Shown here: in pieces, positions 1 through 9,500 of the stretch
Layout: every line of letters starts with the position of its first letter
How positions within the stretch are numbered: position 1 is the stretch's first letter
Source of the DNA: Myxococcota bacterium
GTDB lineage: Bacteria; Myxococcota_A; Polyangia; Nannocystales; Nannocystaceae
Assembly: GCA_039028615.1 (NCBI GenBank)
Contig: JBCCHT010000014.1
Location: 179,710 to 243,709, forward strand
Length of the DNA stretch: 64,000 nucleotides
Reading direction: 5' to 3'
The notes under the pieces: model-generated
Told to the model about the DNA's origin: nothing
Databases searched by the model: none
What the model saw: only the letters and a program-made list of their open reading frames with translations
Program-made: the position numbers and the translations under genes

Positions 1-494
1 CTGTGACCGCACTGGGTGCACGAGGAGCCGCCCTCGGTGGGATCGGGGCCGCCCCAGCCCGCCGCGCGGACCTCGTCGACGAGCACGCCGGCCTGGAACA
101 TCGAGGGCAGGACGATGTGGATCTCGTTGTCGCTGTCGGCCAGGACGTTGATCTCGACGTTGGCCGGGAACCCGATGCCGAACGCGGCCTCGAGGCTGCC
201 GCGAGGATCGGCCAGCAGCTGCGCGCGATAGTCATCGTCCGTCATGGCGCGACTGACCACCTGGGTGGTGATGTCCTGCTCCTGGTCGGTGAGGACCATG
301 GTGCGGGGGATCAACACGTAGACGGACTCGTCGTTCTCCTCGAGGACCCGCACGCTGCAGGTGTCGGAGAAGGTGACGCCGAAGTCTCGCTGAAGCACCA
401 CCTTGGGCTGGTTGACCAGCTCTTGGCGGAAGGCAGGATCCTTCGCCGCTTGGGCGAGCAACGCCGAGACGGGGATGGGGCTGTGGGTCTGCAT
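1..494 (-). CDS. Tandem NHLP-leader domain protein, probable RiPP precursor (3' end lies outside the window)
   Basis: Manual translation from ATG at 494 is open to the window edge: MQTHSPIPVSALLAQAAKDPAFRQELVNQPKVVLQRDFGVTFSDTCSVRVLEENDESVYVLIPRTMVLTDQEQDITTQVVSRAMTDDDYRAQLLADPRGSLEAAFGIGFPANVEINVLADSDNEIHIVLPSMFQAGVLVDEVRAAGWGGPDPTEGGSSCTQCGH. It has two copies of the NHLP pattern (AxxDxxF/YRxxLxxxP...G...VxVxE/D.....vLP). GGAAG lies upstream of the ATG. Confidence 0.85.
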   Translation of the reverse strand, partial: MQTHSPIPVSALLAQAAKDPAFRQELVNQPKVVLQRDFGVTFSDTCSVRVLEENDESVYVLIPRTMVLTDQEQDITTQVVSRAMTDDDYRAQLLADPRGSLEAAFGIGFPANVEINVLADSDNEIHIVLPSMFQAGVLVDEVRAAGWGGPDPTEGGSSCTQCGH

Positions 495-965: not shown

Positions 966-2573
966 ATGAGCGACCATGGACTGGGATGGTGCGAGGGTCC
1001 GACCCCTCCTGCCTTCACCGCCGAGACCATCACCGCCGCGGTGCATGATTTCCGGCGCGAGACCTTCGTCGTCCGTCATCCGCACGATGGTTCGATCGGT
1101 GTTGCCCAGGGGGGTGGACTGGGCCCGGGGGGCGGCACCGCGCGGACCTGGCCCGTGCTGGGCATGCTGGCGCCGCTTTTTCCCGAGTGGCTGGGTGACC
1201 GCAGCTTCGCCGAGATCCACGGCGTTCGGTTCCCCTACGTCAGCGGGGCCATGGCCAACGGCATCGCCACCACCGAGCTGGTGACGGCGATGGGCCGGGC
1301 CGGCTTCCTCGGGTTCTTCGGCGCGGCCGGTCTGGGCTTTTCTCGCGTCGAGCAGGCCGTGGCCACCCTGCGCCAGCAGCTGGGCGACCAGGCGCCGTGG
1401 GGCTGCAACCTCATTCACTCGCCGCAAGAGCCTCGCCTCGAAGAGGCGGTGGCGCAGCTGTACCTCGAGCAAGGCGTGCGGCGCGTCTCGGCCGCGGCCT
1501 ATATGCGGCTGACCCCGGCCATCGTCCGCTACGCGGCGAGCGGCCTGAGCACGGGGCCGCAGGGGCAGATCCTGCGGCGCAATGCGGTGTTCGCCAAGAT
1601 TTCCCGCCCCGAGACGGCGCGGCGCTTCATGGAACCGGCTCCTGCCGCCATGCTCGACGCGCTCGTCCAAAAGGGGCAACTCACCGCCGACGAGGCCGCG
1701 CTCGCCCGCCACGTGCCGGTCGCGGAGGACATCACCGTCGAGTCGGACTCGGGCGGCCACACCGACAACCGGCCGCTCGGGGCCCTATTGCCGCTCATCA
1801 TCTCCGAGCGCGACACCATCGCCGCCGCCCGCGGCTACACCCGCCCCATCCGCGTGGGTGCGGCGGGAGGCATGGGCGCCCCCCGCTCGGTCGCGGCCGC
1901 GTTCGCGATGGGAGCGGCCTACGTGCTCACCGGCTCCGTCAACCAGGCCTGCGTGGAGTCCGGGCTCGATGCCAGCGGACGCCAGATGCTGGCCGAGGCC
2001 GGGGTCGCCGACGTGATGATGGCCCCTGCCGCCGACATGTTCGAGCTCGGCGTGGACGTGCAGGTCCTGCGTCGCGGCACCATGTTCGCGGTCCGGGCTC
2101 GACAGCTGTACTCGCTGTATCGCGCCCACCAAAGCTGGGACGAGATCGCCGCGGACGAGCGCAGCAAGGTCGAAGACCAGCTGCTGCGCTGCTCCTTCGC
2201 CGACGCCTGGGACTCCACGCGCCGCTTCTGGGAAGAGCGCGACCCCACGCAGATCGAGCGCGCCGACGCCGATCCCCGCCACCGCATGGCGCTGGTCTTC
2301 CGCTCCTATCTCGGCCGCTCGAGCCGCTGGGCCATCGACGGCCAGCTCGATCGCCGCGCCGACTATCAGATCTGGTGTGGCCCCGCGATGGGTGCCTTCA
2401 ACGACTGGGTCCGCGACAGCTTCCTCGCCGCCCCGCCGAAGCGCACCGTGGTGCAGGTCGCCCGCAACCTCATGGAAGGCGCGGCCGTGGTCACCCGCGC
2501 GCAACAACTTCGCTCCTACGGGGTCGCCGTGCCCCCGACCGCCTTCGACTTCCGCCCCCGTCCCTTGGGTTAG
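966..2573 (+). CDS. pfa1: PUFA synthase enoyl reductase (PfaD/Pfa1 family)
   Basis: Motifs YVSGAMANGI, FAKISRPE, ESDSGGHTDNRP, GAAGG, TGSVNQ, MAPAADMFELGVDVQVL and YQIWCGPAMGAFN are typical of PfaD. GGGGAG RBS upstream. Confidence 0.95.
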   Translation: MSDHGLGWCEGPTPPAFTAETITAAVHDFRRETFVVRHPHDGSIGVAQGGGLGPGGGTARTWPVLGMLAPLFPEWLGDRSFAEIHGVRFPYVSGAMANGIATTELVTAMGRAGFLGFFGAAGLGFSRVEQAVATLRQQLGDQAPWGCNLIHSPQEPRLEEAVAQLYLEQGVRRVSAAAYMRLTPAIVRYAASGLSTGPQGQILRRNAVFAKISRPETARRFMEPAPAAMLDALVQKGQLTADEAALARHVPVAEDITVESDSGGHTDNRPLGALLPLIISERDTIAAARGYTRPIRVGAAGGMGAPRSVAAAFAMGAAYVLTGSVNQACVESGLDASGRQMLAEAGVADVMMAPAADMFELGVDVQVLRRGTMFAVRARQLYSLYRAHQSWDEIAADERSKVEDQLLRCSFADAWDSTRRFWEERDPTQIERADADPRHRMALVFRSYLGRSSRWAIDGQLDRRADYQIWCGPAMGAFNDWVRDSFLAAPPKRTVVQVARNLMEGAAVVTRAQQLRSYGVAVPPTAFDFRPRPLG

Positions 2574-2576
2574 GTC

Positions 2577-5500
2577 ATGACCGATTCCAAACGACCTCCT
2601 TTGGCCATCGTCGGTGCTTCGGCACTGTTCCCCGGTTCCCCGGATGCCACCGGGTTCTGGCACGACATCCTGCGCGGCCAGGACCTGCTCACCGAGATCC
2701 CGAAGAGTCACTGGCTCATCGAGGACTACTACGACCCCGACCCCAAGGCGCGCGACAAGACCTATGCCCGTCGCGGTGGGTTCATCGACCCGGTGGACTT
2801 CGATGCCGTCACCTGGGGCGTGCCGCCGGCCATCATCAAGGCCACGGACACCTCGCAGCTGCTGGGGCTCATCGTCGCCGAGCAGGTGCTGCGCGACGCC
2901 GCGCGCGAGCGCTTCGAGACCATCGACCGCTCGCGCATGTCGGTGATCTTGGGGGTGACCTCGGCCCAGGAGCTGCTCGCCGCGATGGTCAGCCGGCTGC
3001 AGCGCCCCGTATGGGTGAAGTCGCTGCGCGAGCAGGGCCTGCCCGAAGACGAGGTCCAGGCCGCCTGCGACCGCATCGCCGACCACTACGTCGAGTGGGA
3101 AGAGAGCAGCTTCCCCGGCTTGCTCGGCAACGTGGTGGCGGGTCGCATCGCCAACCGGCTCGATCTCGGCGGCACCAACTGCGTGACCGATGCCGCCTGC
3201 GCCTCGACCTTCTCCGCGCTGTCGATGGCCGCGCAGGAGCTCTACCTCGGGGACTCTGATCTCGTGATCACCGGAGGGGTCGACACCCTCAACGAGATCT
3301 TCATGTTCATGTGTTTCAGCAAGACCCCGGCGCTGTCGCTGTCGGGGGACTGCCGGCCCTTCTCCGACCAAGCCGACGGCACGATGCTCGGCGAGGGTCT
3401 GGGCATGGTGGCCCTGCGTCGCCTCGAAGACGCCGAGCGCGACGGAGACCGCATCTACGCCGTGATTCGGGGCATCGGCGCGTCGTCGGACGGTCGCAGC
3501 AAGAGCGTGTACGCGCCCGTGTCCGCCGGTCAGGCCAAGGCCCTGTCGCGCGCCTACGAGCACGCGGGCTACGAGCCGAGCACGGTCGAGCTGGTCGAGG
3601 CCCACGGCACGGGCACCAAGGCCGGCGATGCGGCCGAGCTGGGCGGGCTGCGGCTCGTGTTCGACACCGAGGGCACCGATCGCCGTCAGTGGTGTGGCCT
3701 CGGCTCGGTGAAGTCGCAGATCGGGCACACCAAGGCAGCCGCGGGCGCGGCGGGCCTGTTCAAGGCGGTGATGGCCCTGCACCACAAGGTGCTGCCGCCC
3801 ACGATCAAGGTGGACACGCCCAACCCCAAGCTCTCGCTCGAGGACTCGGCGTTTTACGTCAACACCCAGGCCCGCCCGTGGGTCCGCAGCAGCGACCACC
3901 CGCGCCGCGCCAGCGTGAGCGCCTTCGGCTTCGGCGGATCCAACTTCCACATCACGCTCGAGGAGTACGACGGGCCCGCCCCGCGAGCCGAGCGACTGCG
4001 AACCTGGCCGAGCGAGCTGGTCGTGCTGTGCGGCGACGATGTCGTGGCGCAGGCCCGGCAGTGGGCCGAGCGCGCCGACGAGACCGAGCTTCTGCCCTTC
4101 GCCGCCTGGACGACCCAGCGCAGCTACGACGCCACCGCCAAGCGACGGCTGGCGGTCGTCGCCTCCACGGGCGACGAGCTGCGCACCCGGCTGCTCGCCG
4201 CCGCCAAGCGGATCGAGGCCGCGCCCGACGATGGGTTCGAACTGCCCGATGGCACCCGCTACGGCGTCGGAGAAGTGAGCGGCGGCGTGGCCCTGCTCTT
4301 CCCGGGGCAAGGCAGCCAATACGTCGGCATGGGGGCGGACCTGGCCATGGGTCTGGACCGAGCCCGCGCCGCGTGGGACCGCGTCGCCGAGCACCCCATG
4401 GACGGGGCGCGGCTCGACCACCAGGTGTTTCCCATCCCCCGCTTCAACGATGCCGATCGCGAGGCGGACACCCAGCGACTGCGGGCGACGCAGTGGGCCC
4501 AGCCGGCCATCGGCTGCACCAGCGCCTCGATGCTCGCCGTCGTGAAGAGCCTCGGCATCGAGGCCCAGGCGGTCGCCGGGCACAGCTTCGGTGAGATCAC
4601 CGCCCTGCACGCCGCGGGTGCGCTGGATGCCGACGCCCTGGTCGCGGTGGCCCGTCGCCGCGGCGAGCTGATGGCCGATGCCAAGGAGCCCGGAGCGATG
4701 GTCGCCGTCTCGGCCCCCGTCGACGACGTGCGCCCGATTCTGCAAGCCCACCCCGACGTGGTGCTGGCCAATCACAACGCACCGCGCCAGGCCGTCCTCA
4801 GCGGACCCGTCGACGCGATCGAGCGCGCCGAAGCGGCGATCAAAGCCGCGGGCTTGCGGGCGACCCAGCTCCCCGTGTCCTCCGCGTTTCACTCCCCGGT
4901 CGTGGCCGGCTGCGTGGCGCCCTTTGGCGAGTTCTTGGCCGGCATCGAGTTCGAGCGGCCGGGGCTGCCCGTGTACTCGGCCGAGTCCGCGGCGCCCTAC
5001 GAGCCCGACGCGGCCGCGATCCGAGCCCGCCTCGGCCGTCAGATCGCCGAGCCCGTGCGCTTCGTGGACACCATCGAGGCCATGGCCGCATCGGGTGCAC
5101 ACACCTTCATCGAGGTCGGCCCCGGCTCGGTCCTCAGCGGCTTGGTCGGTCGCATCCTGAAGGGGCGCCCGCACGCCGCGGTGTCCATCGATCGCAAGGG
5201 TCGCAACGGCCTCGAGTCTCTGAACCTCGCACTGGCCCAGCTCGTCGCGCTCGGCGTGCCGATGCAGCTGGCGCCGCTGTGGGATGGCCATCGCGAGCCC
5301 CTCGATCCGGCATCGCGGCCCAAGCCCAAGCTGGCCATCCCTCTCACCGGTACCAACTACGGAAAGCTCTACCCGCCGCCGGGTGGCGCTGCCGATCTTC
5401 CCGCTCCCAATCCCCCGCGTGCTGCCATGTCTCGAGAAGCGAATCGTCCATCGAACCCCGCCCCGAGCTCCACGCCCACCATCGTGCCGGCCGAGACGCC

Positions 5501-8500
5501 GACGCCCGCCGCGGCTCCCCCTGCGGCCGCCCTGCCCGCGCCCACGCCCATGGTGGCGGCCCCCGTCGCGCCTGCGTCCGCTCCGTTCGTGGCGGCCCCC
5601 GCCCCCGCGGCGCCCCTGGTGACCCCCGCGGCACAGGCCCCCGCGGGATGGCTCGCGGCCTGGCAGCAGGCGCAAGAGCAGACCGCTCAGACCCACGCGC
5701 TCTTTCAGCAGACCATGGCGCAGTCCCACGCGGCGTTCCTGCGCACGGCGGAGGCGAGCCTGATGGGATTGGCCGCGATGGCGGGTGCTCCGGCGACGGC
5801 CGGGATGAACGCGTCCGTCGCCGTGCAGCCGGCCGTGCCCGCCCCCGCTCCGATGCCCGCCGCGGCTCCGCCTGCATGGGCGCCCGCTCCCGCTGCGCCG
5901 GCACCGATGGCGGCTCCGCCTGCGATGCCGGTCGCCCCCCCGAGCCCGGTTGCCGCCGCCCCGGCGCCCACTCCCGTGGCTCCTGCACCCGCCGTGCAAG
6001 CGGCTCCGCCCGTCGCCGCGGCAGCGAAGCCCGCGATCGACCTCGAAGCGGTGATGCTCGAGGTGGTCTCCGACAAGACCGGCTATCCGCAGGACATGCT
6101 CGAGCTGTCCATGGACATGGAGGCCCAGCTCGGCATCGACTCCATCAAGCGCGTCGAGATCCTCGCCGCCGTCCAGGAGCGCGCCCCGGGCATGCCCGAG
6201 GTCGATGCCTCCCACATGTCCAGCCTCACCACCCTCGGCCAGATCGTCGACTACATGCGTGACCTGATGGGTGAGGCGGCGCCCGCTGCCGCCCCGGCCA
6301 GCAGCGCGGCCCCGGCCAGCCCCTCCGTCGATCTGGAGCGCCTCATGCTCGAGGTGGTCGCCGACAAGACCGGCTATCCGCAGGACATGCTCGAGCTGTC
6401 CATGGACATGGAGGCCCAGCTCGGCATCGACTCCATCAAGCGCGTCGAGATCCTCGCCGCCGTGCAGGAGCGCGCCCCGGGCATGCCCGAGGTCGACGCC
6501 TCCCACATGTCCAGCCTCACCACCCTCGGGCAGATCGTCGACTACATGCGTGGTTTGCTCGGTGCGGCGGCCCCCGCTGCGGCGCCCACCAACGCGCCCG
6601 CGGCCAGCCCCGCCGTCGACCTCGAGCGCCTGATGCTCGAGGTGGTCGCCGACAAGACCGGCTACCCCCAGGACATGCTCGAGCTGTCCATGGACATGGA
6701 AGCGCAGCTCGGCATCGACTCCATCAAGCGCGTCGAGATCCTCGCCGCCGTGCAGGAGCAGGCCCCGGGCATGCCCGAGGTCGATGCCTCCCACATGTCG
6801 AGCCTCACCACCCTGGGGCAGATCGTCGACTACATGCGCGGCCTGCTGGGCAGCACCGCCCAAGCCGCTGCCCCGGCCGACGTGGCTGCAGCGGCTCCCG
6901 CGGTGGACCTCGAGGCGCTCATGCTCGAAGTGGTCGCCGACAAGACCGGCTATCCGCAGGACATGCTCGAGCTGTCCATGGACATGGAAGCTCAGCTGGG
7001 CATCGACTCCATCAAGCGCGTCGAGATCCTCGCTGCCGTCCAGGAACGTGCCCCGGGCATGCCCGAGGTCGATGCCTCCCACATGTCCAGCCTCGCCACG
7101 CTGGGGCAGATCGTCGACTACATGCGCGGCCTGCTCGGCGGCGCCCCGCAGCCGATTCCCACCGCTGGCACCGCCCCCTCCGAAGGCTCGAGCCCGGACA
7201 TCGAAGGTCCCCCGCTCGGTCGCTTCGCCCTCGAGCTCCGAGACGCGCCCGCGGTCGGACTGGCGCAGCCGGGCCTGTTCGGAGACGACGGCGTCGTAGT
7301 CAGCTCCGATGGTGGACCCGTCGCCGCCGCGCTGGTGGCCGAGCTGACGCGTCGTGGCGTGCCCGCACGCGAGGCCGAGGTCACCGACACCACCACCGCC
7401 GCCATCTTCCTCGGCGGCCTCCGGGCGGTGCAGACGGCCGATGACGCGGTCGCCGTGCAGCGCGAGGCCTTCACCACCGCTCGCACGCTGGCCCCGCGCC
7501 TGAGCACCACGGGCGGCCTGTGGGTCACCGTGCAGGACACCGGGGGCGGCTTTGGCCTCGAGCCCTGCCCGCCTGTGCGCGCGTACCTGGGGGGCATCCC
7601 GGCCCTGGTCAAGACGGCCCGCCAAGAGTGGCCCCACGCTAGCCTCAAGTCGATCGACATCGACGTCGGAGGCCGCAGTGCGGAGCAGATCGCCAACGCC
7701 CTCGCCGACGAGTTGCTCGGCGGTGGTGGTGAGATCGAGGTCGCGCTGTCGACCGACGGCACTCGTCGCACGCTGCGGTCCTTCGCGGCCGAGGTGGAGC
7801 CCGCCGCGTCGGTGGTGGGGCCACAGGACGTCATCGTGGTCTCCGGCGGCGCCCGAGGGGTGACCTCCGCCTGTGTCCGCGAGTGGGCGGCCGACAGCGG
7901 TGCGCGCTTCGTGCTGCTGGGCCGGACCCCGCTCACCGACGAGCCCGCCGGGCTCCAGGGCGACGAAGACGACGCCGCGCTCAAGCGAGTGCTGCTCCAG
8001 CAGGCCCGCGACCGCGGCGAGCGACCCTCCCCCGTCGAGCTGTCGCGCCAGACCTCGGCCATCCTCTCCGGCCGCGAGATCCGAGCCACGCTGTCCGCCC
8101 TACAGGGCATCGGGGTGAAGGCGCGCTACGAGGCGGTCGACGTCACCAATGCCGACGCCCTGGCCTCCACGCTGGCCGAGGTACGTACGCAGTGGGGCCC
8201 GATCACGGGGCTGGTGCACGGCGCGGGCGTCCTCGCCGACAAGCCCATCGCCGCGCTCGACGACGCCTCGTTCAACCGGGTCTTCGACACCAAGGTCACC
8301 GGCCTCCGAGCGCTGCTGCACGCCACCCGCGACGACTCGCTCAAGGTGCTGGCGATGTTCAGCTCCGTCTCCGCCCGCTGCGGCAACAACGGCCAGAGCG
8401 CGTACGCGATGGCCAACGAGGTGCTCAACAAGGTCGCCCAGGCCGAGGCACGCGCCCGGGGTCCGCAGGTCCGCGTCCGCTCGCTGGGCTGGGGCCCGTG

Positions 8501-9500
8501 GGAGGGCGGCATGGTCAACCCGGCCCTACGCAAGCGCTTCGCCGAGCTGGGCGTCCCGATGATCCCGCTGGACGTCGGGGCCCGCATGCTGGCCGACGAG
8601 CTGCGAGCCCCGCACGCCGAGTCGGTAGAGCTGGTGCTGGGCGGTGAGCCCCGAGCCGAGGCTCTTTTGGTCAAGGGCAGCGAAGATCGACGGCTCGAGC
8701 TGGAGGTCCACGTCGGCCAAGGCACGCATGGCTATCTCGCCGACCACTCCATCGGTGGTGCCGCGGTCGTCCCCGTCGTGCTCGCCATGGAGTGGATGAC
8801 CCGCCTCGCCCGCGCCTTCCGGCCCGACCTCGAGCTGCGCTCCATCGACAAGCTTCGGGTGCTGCGGGGCATCAAGCTGTCCGGCTTCGACGGCGGCGGC
8901 GACCGCTTCACCTTGCGCGCCCGCACGCTCCGCAACGGCCACGGGGCGATCCTCGAGCTCGAGGTCCTCGGCTCGGATGGAACGCCGCACTACCGCTCCG
9001 AGGCCACGATGGCCGCCAAGGAGGACCCGGCGCCGCCCTCGTCGTCGCCCTCTTCGCCCCGGCTCGAAGCGTGGAGCGGCAGCTCCATCTACGGCGACGT
9101 GCTCTTCCACGGCGACAAGTTCCAGGTCATCGAGTCGCTCGAGGGCGTGGGCGCTGATGGCATCGCCGGCACGCTCAAGGGCGTGGACCGAGCGGGCTGG
9201 ACCTGGGAGAGCTGGCAGACCGACGCCGCCGCGCACGACGGTGGCCTCCAGCTCGCCGTGCTGTGGGCACGTCACCAGCTGGGCCGCGCCATGCTGCCCA
9301 TGGGAATCGAAGCGCTGAAGCTCTCGGGCCAACCGGTGGTCGAAGGGCCCCTGCGCTGCTTTGCCCGATGCCGCGAAACCGACGCGTCGCGAGTGACGGC
9401 CGACCTGGCCTTCGTCGACGCCGAGGGCCGCGTGATCAGTGAGCTGCGGGGGGCCGAGCTGGTCGCCCGTCCCGACATGCCGTCGATCGCCCGGGGCTGA
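2577..9500 (+). CDS. pfa2: PUFA synthase subunit: KS-MAT-4xACP-KR-PKS-type DH (PfaA/Pfa2 family)
   Basis: KS: DAACAS, EAHGTGT, GHTKAAAG. AT: FPGQGSQ, GHSFG, SSAFHS. Four ACPs: LGIDSIKRVEIL. KR: SGGARGVT, HGAGVLAD, YAMAN. DH: LADHSIGGAAVVP. Confidence 0.95.
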   Translation: MTDSKRPPLAIVGASALFPGSPDATGFWHDILRGQDLLTEIPKSHWLIEDYYDPDPKARDKTYARRGGFIDPVDFDAVTWGVPPAIIKATDTSQLLGLIVAEQVLRDAARERFETIDRSRMSVILGVTSAQELLAAMVSRLQRPVWVKSLREQGLPEDEVQAACDRIADHYVEWEESSFPGLLGNVVAGRIANRLDLGGTNCVTDAACASTFSALSMAAQELYLGDSDLVITGGVDTLNEIFMFMCFSKTPALSLSGDCRPFSDQADGTMLGEGLGMVALRRLEDAERDGDRIYAVIRGIGASSDGRSKSVYAPVSAGQAKALSRAYEHAGYEPSTVELVEAHGTGTKAGDAAELGGLRLVFDTEGTDRRQWCGLGSVKSQIGHTKAAAGAAGLFKAVMALHHKVLPPTIKVDTPNPKLSLEDSAFYVNTQARPWVRSSDHPRRASVSAFGFGGSNFHITLEEYDGPAPRAERLRTWPSELVVLCGDDVVAQARQWAERADETELLPFAAWTTQRSYDATAKRRLAVVASTGDELRTRLLAAAKRIEAAPDDGFELPDGTRYGVGEVSGGVALLFPGQGSQYVGMGADLAMGLDRARAAWDRVAEHPMDGARLDHQVFPIPRFNDADREADTQRLRATQWAQPAIGCTSASMLAVVKSLGIEAQAVAGHSFGEITALHAAGALDADALVAVARRRGELMADAKEPGAMVAVSAPVDDVRPILQAHPDVVLANHNAPRQAVLSGPVDAIERAEAAIKAAGLRATQLPVSSAFHSPVVAGCVAPFGEFLAGIEFERPGLPVYSAESAAPYEPDAAAIRARLGRQIAEPVRFVDTIEAMAASGAHTFIEVGPGSVLSGLVGRILKGRPHAAVSIDRKGRNGLESLNLALAQLVALGVPMQLAPLWDGHREPLDPASRPKPKLAIPLTGTNYGKLYPPPGGAADLPAPNPPRAAMSREANRPSNPAPSSTPTIVPAETPTPAAAPPAAALPAPTPMVAAPVAPASAPFVAAPAPAAPLVTPAAQAPAGWLAAWQQAQEQTAQTHALFQQTMAQSHAAFLRTAEASLMGLAAMAGAPATAGMNASVAVQPAVPAPAPMPAAAPPAWAPAPAAPAPMAAPPAMPVAPPSPVAAAPAPTPVAPAPAVQAAPPVAAAAKPAIDLEAVMLEVVSDKTGYPQDMLELSMDMEAQLGIDSIKRVEILAAVQERAPGMPEVDASHMSSLTTLGQIVDYMRDLMGEAAPAAAPASSAAPASPSVDLERLMLEVVADKTGYPQDMLELSMDMEAQLGIDSIKRVEILAAVQERAPGMPEVDASHMSSLTTLGQIVDYMRGLLGAAAPAAAPTNAPAASPAVDLERLMLEVVADKTGYPQDMLELSMDMEAQLGIDSIKRVEILAAVQEQAPGMPEVDASHMSSLTTLGQIVDYMRGLLGSTAQAAAPADVAAAAPAVDLEALMLEVVADKTGYPQDMLELSMDMEAQLGIDSIKRVEILAAVQERAPGMPEVDASHMSSLATLGQIVDYMRGLLGGAPQPIPTAGTAPSEGSSPDIEGPPLGRFALELRDAPAVGLAQPGLFGDDGVVVSSDGGPVAAALVAELTRRGVPAREAEVTDTTTAAIFLGGLRAVQTADDAVAVQREAFTTARTLAPRLSTTGGLWVTVQDTGGGFGLEPCPPVRAYLGGIPALVKTARQEWPHASLKSIDIDVGGRSAEQIANALADELLGGGGEIEVALSTDGTRRTLRSFAAEVEPAASVVGPQDVIVVSGGARGVTSACVREWAADSGARFVLLGRTPLTDEPAGLQGDEDDAALKRVLLQQARDRGERPSPVELSRQTSAILSGREIRATLSALQGIGVKARYEAVDVTNADALASTLAEVRTQWGPITGLVHGAGVLADKPIAALDDASFNRVFDTKVTGLRALLHATRDDSLKVLAMFSSVSARCGNNGQSAYAMANEVLNKVAQAEARARGPQVRVRSLGWGPWEGGMVNPALRKRFAELGVPMIPLDVGARMLADELRAPHAESVELVLGGEPRAEALLVKGSEDRRLELEVHVGQGTHGYLADHSIGGAAVVPVVLAMEWMTRLARAFRPDLELRSIDKLRVLRGIKLSGFDGGGDRFTLRARTLRNGHGAILELEVLGSDGTPHYRSEATMAAKEDPAPPSSSPSSPRLEAWSGSSIYGDVLFHGDKFQVIESLEGVGADGIAGTLKGVDRAGWTWESWQTDAAAHDGGLQLAVLWARHQLGRAMLPMGIEALKLSGQPVVEGPLRCFARCRETDASRVTADLAFVDAEGRVISELRGAELVARPDMPSIARG
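6036..7140 (+). repeat. Four near-identical tandem ACP-coding repeats (unit about 290 bp) inside pfa2
   Basis: GACAAGACCGGCTA..CAGGACATGCTCGAGCTGTCCATGGACATGGA..GGCATCGACTCCATCAAGCGCGTCGAGATCCTCGC occurs four times, separated by variable Ala/Pro linkers. Confidence 0.95.

Follow-up and report, generated by a model that had tools for sequence, protein, structure and literature searches.

In the mpp cluster of Moorena producens PAL, the prenyltransferase MppC is reported to geranylate a Trp of the LanM-cyclised core, a reaction that needs the leader and prefers the cyclised core; the precursor MppE is described there as a single Nif11-type leader, its tail an acidic L(X)4L motif, joined to a core of 7 aa (PMC12715784). 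NctPC is described as an ABBA-barrel prenyltransferase-cyclase that geranylgeranylates Trp and has low similarity to the cyanobactin prenyltransferases (PMC13290415). For NHLP leaders, the DprE/DprM and OspA/OspM systems are described as pairing a single module with a Gly-Gly end, hydrophobic residues at positions -4/-7/-12 and a C39 transporter (PMC12537861), and different enzymes are reported to use different NHLP surfaces (PMC12455567). The NHLP-Burk family is described as fused gene pairs near cyclodehydratases (PMC2887384).

Here we describe a precursor gene at the left edge of a 64,000-nucleotide stretch of the Myxococcota genome G000 (C14:179710-243709), the whole of which is referred to below as the window. 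By HMM the precursor belongs to the NHLP leader clan, but two things that usually go with such leaders are missing: the motif-2/Gly-Gly ending and a C39 transporter. The doubled leader is genuine, rare and conserved, a variation on a known lanthipeptide class. Within our literature search, which covered few subscription papers, no title or abstract start dealt with a two-module NHLP leader accompanied by LanM and prenyltransferase, or with the export of native lanthipeptide precursors through Tat; the supplement of PMC12715784 shows further prenyltransferase-lanthipeptide clusters that could already contain two-module precursors.

The precursor gene and its two leader modules

The precursor starts with an ATG at position 494 of the window, on the minus strand, and a Shine-Dalgarno-like GGAAG, read directly from the sequence at 509-505 on the same strand and 10 nt 5' of the ATG, presumably functions as such. 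The full frame encodes 197 aa (C14:180203-179610) and stops 100 nt past the left edge of the window; the part inside (1..494) encodes aa 1-164, so that of the 51 residues of the core no more than 18 could be read from the window. Because the frame crosses this edge, the gene is absent as an ordinary entry from the window's ORF list, where it appears as '3open', a frame that leaves the window. The initial annotation had called it unannotated, an effect of this edge: the 197-aa protein is present in the gene-called protein collection. The frame does not continue into a large enzyme domain, a prospect that had been raised against the reading as a precursor.

The two consecutive NHLP domains initially annotated were recovered in the HMM search: TIGR03793 matches the precursor protein (P0001) over two stretches at 95.8 bits, against a cut-off of 50.9. 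Module 1 (279..464, minus strand; E 3.8e-12 in the genome scan) and module 2 (93..281, minus strand; E 1.7e-12) are each predicted to consist of three helices and a beta-hairpin, with AlphaFold2 pLDDT values of about 90 and about 92, respectively. The same TIGR03793-based scan found no other NHLP match in the 12.3-Mb genome and none in 14 control genomes. P0001 also passes the Pfam DurB-like model (36.8 against a cut-off of 26.6) and scores 28.5 bits, below the cut-off of 35, with NF033431, the model for cinnamycin/duramycin-type precursors. Sequence identity between the modules is 23%, and a direct BLASTP comparison gave no alignment; judged by their sequences they are old duplicates. An assembly duplication was ruled out by this divergence and by the existence of tandem homologues.

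The AlphaFold2 model of the precursor, which was built on a 16-row alignment and may reflect the program's memory of nitrile hydratase (NHase) alpha, contains two three-helix, two-strand modules (pLDDT about 90) and a disordered core, with a pTM of 0.58. Residues 5-147 superpose on NHase alpha with a Z of 9.0 (rmsd 3.6, 123 residues aligned). The single-module DprE2 aligns through 57 residues spread over model residues 1-135 (Z 4.1), and this spread over both modules hints at intertwined packing. Most likely, as far as the model can be trusted, both modules are packed against each other as a single compact body, in the manner of the NHase alpha internal repeat, and such packing bears on the relation of NHLP leaders to NHase. 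The suggestion in the initial annotation of an intramolecular NHLP dimer fits loosely at best: the model resembles the NHase alpha internal repeat, whereas Os1348, the one NHLP-clan homodimer found for comparison, is all-alpha in the crystal and described as unlike NHase (PMC7726476).

It is exceedingly improbable that the ORF is itself an NHase alpha subunit, whether complete or decayed. PF02979 scores above its cut-off and the best PDB matches, by sequence and by fold, are NHase-family alpha chains, but TIGR01323 gives 41.1 bits against a cut-off of 249.85, the linker between the repeats is free of the metal-binding Cys cluster found in true NHase alpha at L073 and L080, and the neighbours are a LanM and a prenyltransferase-like gene, with no beta-subunit-like gene seen adjacent. 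We rejected the remnant reading on the TIGR01323 score, the Cys-free linker and these neighbours.

The leader tail (57..92, minus strand) ends in VRAAG, and a regular-expression search of P0001 found neither motif 2 (ELSDxxL..VAGG) nor a double-Gly end. With the motif defined as in Table 3 of PMC2887384, ELSDxxL occurs in 18 of 23 single-module relatives, which belong mostly to distant subfamilies, and in 1 of 16 tandem precursors, P0009. The proposed core runs from W147 to G197 (51 aa), with its start at 1..56 on the minus strand of the window, and holds five Cys (159, 162, 167, 171 and 179) and 13 Ser/Thr; W147 is the sole Trp in the protein. We place the putative cut between G146 and W147 by analogy with those single-module relatives in which the core begins GG|W, although W147 could fall in the leader if the cut follows WGG. 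The W147 column is invariant across the 16 rows of alignment A5, of which the P0008 row is doubtful, and Tyr stands in place of Trp in the actinomycete-binned precursor (L049).

The junction and core start quoted in the initial annotation match the sequence, and the pattern of conserved leaders and variable cores that it anticipated among homologues is present: the leaders align, and the cores are conserved within precursor subgroups and differ between them. The ORF is supported as a RiPP precursor whose NHLP leader is doubled.

Maturation genes beyond the window edge

The maturation genes had been expected to lie left of the window, and a LanM, a prenyltransferase-like gene and an ABC exporter were found there. 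The order is precursor, ABBA-fold prenyltransferase-like gene (P0005, 365 aa; C14:178437-179534), LanM (1070 aa; C14:175218-178430) and exporter without C39 (609 aa; C14:173385-175214), all on the minus strand with gaps of 75, 6 and 3 nt, the last three genes lying outside the window. Between the precursor and P0005 is a stem-loop with a U-rich tail (C14:179564-179600, minus strand, z -2.6); no sigma-70-type promoter match was found. The genome yielded no second precursor, second LanM or second prenyltransferase of this kind.

The LanM matches TIGR03897 at 793.8 bits and aligns to LicM2 over residues 180-1061, with the kinase, elimination and cyclase motifs and the CCG zinc site kept. The LanM is intact, and thioether rings are the likely chemistry, in line with the initial annotation. 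The other chemistries named there, azole and radical-SAM maturation, were rejected: a Pfam/NCBIfam scan found no YcaO or radical SAM gene inside the four-gene unit. Of the neighbours that it named as worth looking for, a LanM and an ABC transporter are present, and no YcaO, radical SAM or C39 domain was found in the unit. A Pfam domain search found no Peptidase_C39 in the G000 or G005 transporters; G063 has a C39-peptidase transporter about 3 kb beyond its LanM, which may belong to another cluster.

Divergent from the precursor, the window carries pfaD and then a pfaA-like multi-ACP polyunsaturated fatty acid synthase (966-9500, plus strand). A link between the precursor unit and this cluster was rejected: two same-genus genomes with pfaD matches differ in their upstream genes, and the remaining tandem loci have different neighbours.

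P0005 has no Pfam or NCBIfam match and no significant match in the PDB by sequence; at E 1e-10, a search of representatives clustered at 50% identity gave 845 matches for its family. All 19 structural matches of its AlphaFold2 model (pLDDT 90.9) at Z >= 11 are ABBA prenyltransferases, the best being MpnD (Z 16.8, rmsd 4.3, 293 residues aligned) and CymD (Z 16.7), and the next unrelated fold follows at Z 6.7. Foldseek agrees. The model identifies P0005 as ABBA-fold prenyltransferase-like; the protein stands alone, and its family had no hit in Pfam or in PDB sequence searches here. E52, D120, R204, K337, K349 and Y351 are invariant across 111 rows of the family. Among the 29 longer homologues scanned, a squalene-cyclase-like domain was present in 16, a methyltransferase in 5, a sulfotransferase in 2 and a 2OG oxygenase in 1, while the remaining 5 gave no further domain. 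P0042, P0055 and P0076 are among the fusions of the prenyltransferase-family domain to methyltransferase, sulfotransferase and 2OG-Fe(II) oxygenase domains.

The predicted complex of P0005 with the leader was weakly supported, scoring 0.47 against 0.25 for the best control. In calibration, 116 of 157 solved pairs attained this mark, as did 2 of 215 mismatched pairs, and those that attained it at 0.60 or below comprise only 18 solved pairs and both mismatches. The runs gave at least 59% contact agreement and a partner pLDDT of at least 78, and no interface.

Tandem-module relatives and the neighbours of leaders and prenyltransferases

Three protein searches and locus scans gave 16 tandem-module precursors with a core. 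Usable flanking DNA exists for five of them, namely G000, G005, G063, G071 and L049, an Actinomycetes-binned contig (L048 duplicates L018, so the two were taken as a single locus, L046 and L047 break off too early, and 11 precursors are without context). The order precursor, prenyltransferase, LanM is found at all five loci, which are related and non-independent; in G005 and L049 the prenyltransferase or LanM frames are broken by frameshifts, possibly assembly errors. NHLP matches were present in 7 of 73 genomes in the family scan (four tandem with a core, two tandem without a core and one single-module) and in 42 of 401 genomes in the phylum scan. A metagenome scan with alignment A1 gave 0 confirmed relatives among 419 pattern matches.

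The duplication might be near-neutral or stabilising and of repeated origin, with module 2 docking and module 1 carried along as a passenger; we consider this unlikely. Four loci, which represent three genera of Nannocystaceae, and the actinomycete-binned contig have all retained the two modules, and among close relatives module 1 is as well conserved to P0001 (79% and 75%) as module 2 (73% and 55%). A passenger module would, on the other hand, suit P0009, in which two 98% identical modules and an intact canonical ELSD tail look like a recent, independent duplication. It would also suit the tandem modules without core or maturase at L020 and L021, and fused NHLP-Burk pairs are known (PMC2887384). 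The module tree, calculated on 57 columns, leaves 18 of 53 inner branches open and does not separate one origin from several.

The coreless tandem NHLP-like modules (L020:8532-9170 in G051 and L021:1224-1727 in G024) have basic tails and lie directly downstream of a 1600-aa protein, with LamG-like domains in the L020 copy. No prenyltransferase or LanM was seen near either.

A subset of tandem precursors has a different N-terminus. In P0183-P0190, SRR is invariant in 8/8 and is followed by a hydrophobic stretch and an Ala-rich end; TIGR01409 (Tat) scores 13.1-15.7 bits in 4/8, below its cut-off of 16.7, and has no match in the other 4/8. These precursors (among them L018:9699-10451 and L019:8264-9022) combine the Tat-like signal with a GMRGPExG linker and a CxC...CC core. 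P0001 has no twin-arginine signal. Neither Tat-type locus with flanks has an ABC exporter directly after LanM, whereas in G000 and G005, which are without the Tat-like signal, the exporter directly follows LanM; L049 has neither the signal nor a matching exporter after LanM, and these few loci do not establish a rule. In G071, LanM is directly followed by a gene (L018:4502-5695, minus strand) whose product has a lipoprotein-like start, motifs that look protease-like and no Pfam match; it is a candidate leader peptidase.

We asked how far prenyltransferase and doubled leader go together by taking 20 NHLP places from the phylum scan, most NHase-pair-like ones being left out, and adding the family loci. 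A prenyltransferase-family gene stood beside 0 of 16 single-module loci, a weak contrast in view of the many distant subfamilies among them and of some short contigs, and beside 0 of 4 loci with only the hairpin duplicated and 0 of 2 coreless tandem loci. Two control loci hold true NHase alpha. Conversely, among 33 prenyltransferase loci from the family and phylum scans, NHLP or LanM lies within 1.5 kb only at four tandem loci, and because the other 29 have neither nearby, the P0005 family probably also acts outside such clusters.

Several of the loci sampled have features of their own. The prenyltransferase-family genes of L027-L033, L035-L043 and L045, with no nearby NHLP or LanM, often follow a gene for 130-190 aa and a protease-like or repeat-domain gene. 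The leaders with only the beta-hairpin part duplicated (L069-L072, in G149, G254 and G303, and P0018 and P0020) precede long cores rich in Thr, Val and Ala; the genome copies have a Gly-Gly end, and G149 holds at least five of them. L062-L067 are single-module NHLP-like peptides from six genomes, all with a conserved D-x-N-[P/A]-G-F tail.

Outside Myxococcota, the link between prenyltransferase and tandem leader breaks. Three of the four plasmid matches of P0005 were examined, and in all three the prenyltransferase homologue adjoins single-module leaders, twice with a LanM. In Nostoc UHCC 0926 and Pseudanabaena CCNP1313, the single leaders beside the prenyltransferase and LanM are of the NHLP or Nif11 type. 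Plasmid pAB510a of Azospirillum sp. B510 (L089:10322-19406) encodes eight precursors with one NHLP module each, seven of which have Trp as their last residue, next to a fused protein whose C-terminal half contains a prenyltransferase-family domain. Trp-ending cores accompany the prenyltransferase in two of the three plasmid loci; the Nostoc cores that were displayed have no Trp. Since prenyltransferase homologues lie beside single-module leaders, doubling is not needed to pair a prenyltransferase with a LanM.

These observations bear on the proposal in the initial annotation that two leaders recruit two enzymes, which is possible but not required, as a single Nif11-type leader is reported to serve both enzymes (PMC12715784) and single leaders adjoin members of this prenyltransferase family at the plasmid loci. 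That LanM and prenyltransferase each have a module of their own, bound simultaneously or in order, we hold unlikely. LanMs and lanthipeptide prenyltransferases are both reported to dock into the hydrophobic nucleus of a folded leader, which DprM enters with Trp203/Trp207 (PMC12537861) and MppC with Phe340 (PMC12715784), and the tandem-plus-core loci have both enzymes in 5/5 cases, against a prenyltransferase at 0/16 single-module loci. The modules are, moreover, 18-33% identical in 14 of the 16 core-bearing precursors, each being position-conserved within subgroups. Against separate docking stand the one Nif11 leader reported to serve both MppM and MppC (PMC12715784), the single-module leaders of the three plasmid loci, the AlphaFold2 model, which packs the modules together, and the module tree, on which the module 1 copies of different subgroups do not cluster, although its deep forks are open.

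A broader version, in which a distinct architecture has evolved, the folded two-module domain replacing the double-Gly export signal, each module docking one maturase and, in the twin-arginine relatives, the folded leader letting the modified precursor leave by Tat instead of a peptidase ABC transporter, seems to us rather improbable. Were the Tat-like signals functional, they would provide a different export route for lanthipeptides.

Proposed pathway and comparison with known systems

We favour the reading that the four-gene unit makes a Trp-prenylated class II lanthipeptide, with the two modules forming one packed docking domain, and think it probable. By family resemblance, LanM would bind the folded leader, dehydrate some of the 13 core Ser/Thr and close up to five (methyl)lanthionine rings. 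P0005, with its ABBA fold, would then add an isoprenoid to Trp147 before the leader is removed, and since P0005 has no cyclase domain the prenyl group should be linear. A protease encoded elsewhere would cut near AG|W, and the ABC transporter would export the product. The packed modules may offer the enzymes a single, larger surface to dock on, in precursors whose lineage no longer has the acidic ELSDxxL..GG motif that single-module leaders use in their tail.

The rival readings overlap partly with this one, differing over the reason for two modules and over whether prenylation occurs. On the latter point, the lanthipeptide might go unprenylated, or P0005 might prenylate a small molecule or another residue or be only a binding partner. 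A fold match by itself shows no function, 29 of 33 prenyltransferase loci are without NHLP or LanM within 1.5 kb, and L049 has Tyr instead of Trp. We nevertheless judge this improbable in view of the fixed position of the prenyltransferase between precursor and LanM at 5/5 loci, the invariant basic and KxY residues in P0005, and the Trp-ending cores beside prenyltransferase homologues.

If the favoured reading is right, the cluster predicts a multi-ring, N-terminally Trp-prenylated myxobacterial lipopeptide. Two diverged nuclei beside these two enzymes also make the assignment of modules to enzymes directly testable, and such an assignment, if true, would offer orthogonal docking tags for RiPP engineering.

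Compared with described systems, the pathway of precursor, LanM and prenyltransferase is likely to resemble that of MppE/MppM/MppC. As in the mpp cluster, a LanM and a soluble ABBA-type prenyltransferase accompany a core that probably contains the Trp and a long leader, predicted to be folded, of the kind reported to be engaged by the enzymes (PMC12715784); unlike MppE, the precursor has a pair of NHLP modules, lacks the ELSDxxL tail, and has a putative core of 51 aa that would carry five Cys and start with its Trp, and the likeness of P0005 to MppC is one of description. NctPC, compared by architecture and fold, shares its prenyltransferase-cyclase architecture (PMC13290415) with 16 of the 29 longer P0005 homologues, whereas P0005 itself stands alone.

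With DprE/DprM and OspA/OspM, the locus shares the three-helix and two-strand module, the three-Cys zinc LanM and a Cys/Ser/Thr core (PMC12537861), and it departs from them in its two modules, its AG|W junction and its lack of a C39 domain. NHLP-Burk (TIGR03795) offers a precedent for tandem NHLP-like units, fused in Delftia acidovorans and Acidovorax avenae (PMC2887384), but P0001 scores 33.4 bits with that model, below the cut-off of 41, and has one long LanM-type core. NHase alpha, finally, has two internal repeats of the same module, seen as two matched stretches, and superposes across both modules of the P0001 model (Z 9.0), from which it differs by the metal-binding Cys loop between its repeats, P0001 scoring far below the family cut-off.
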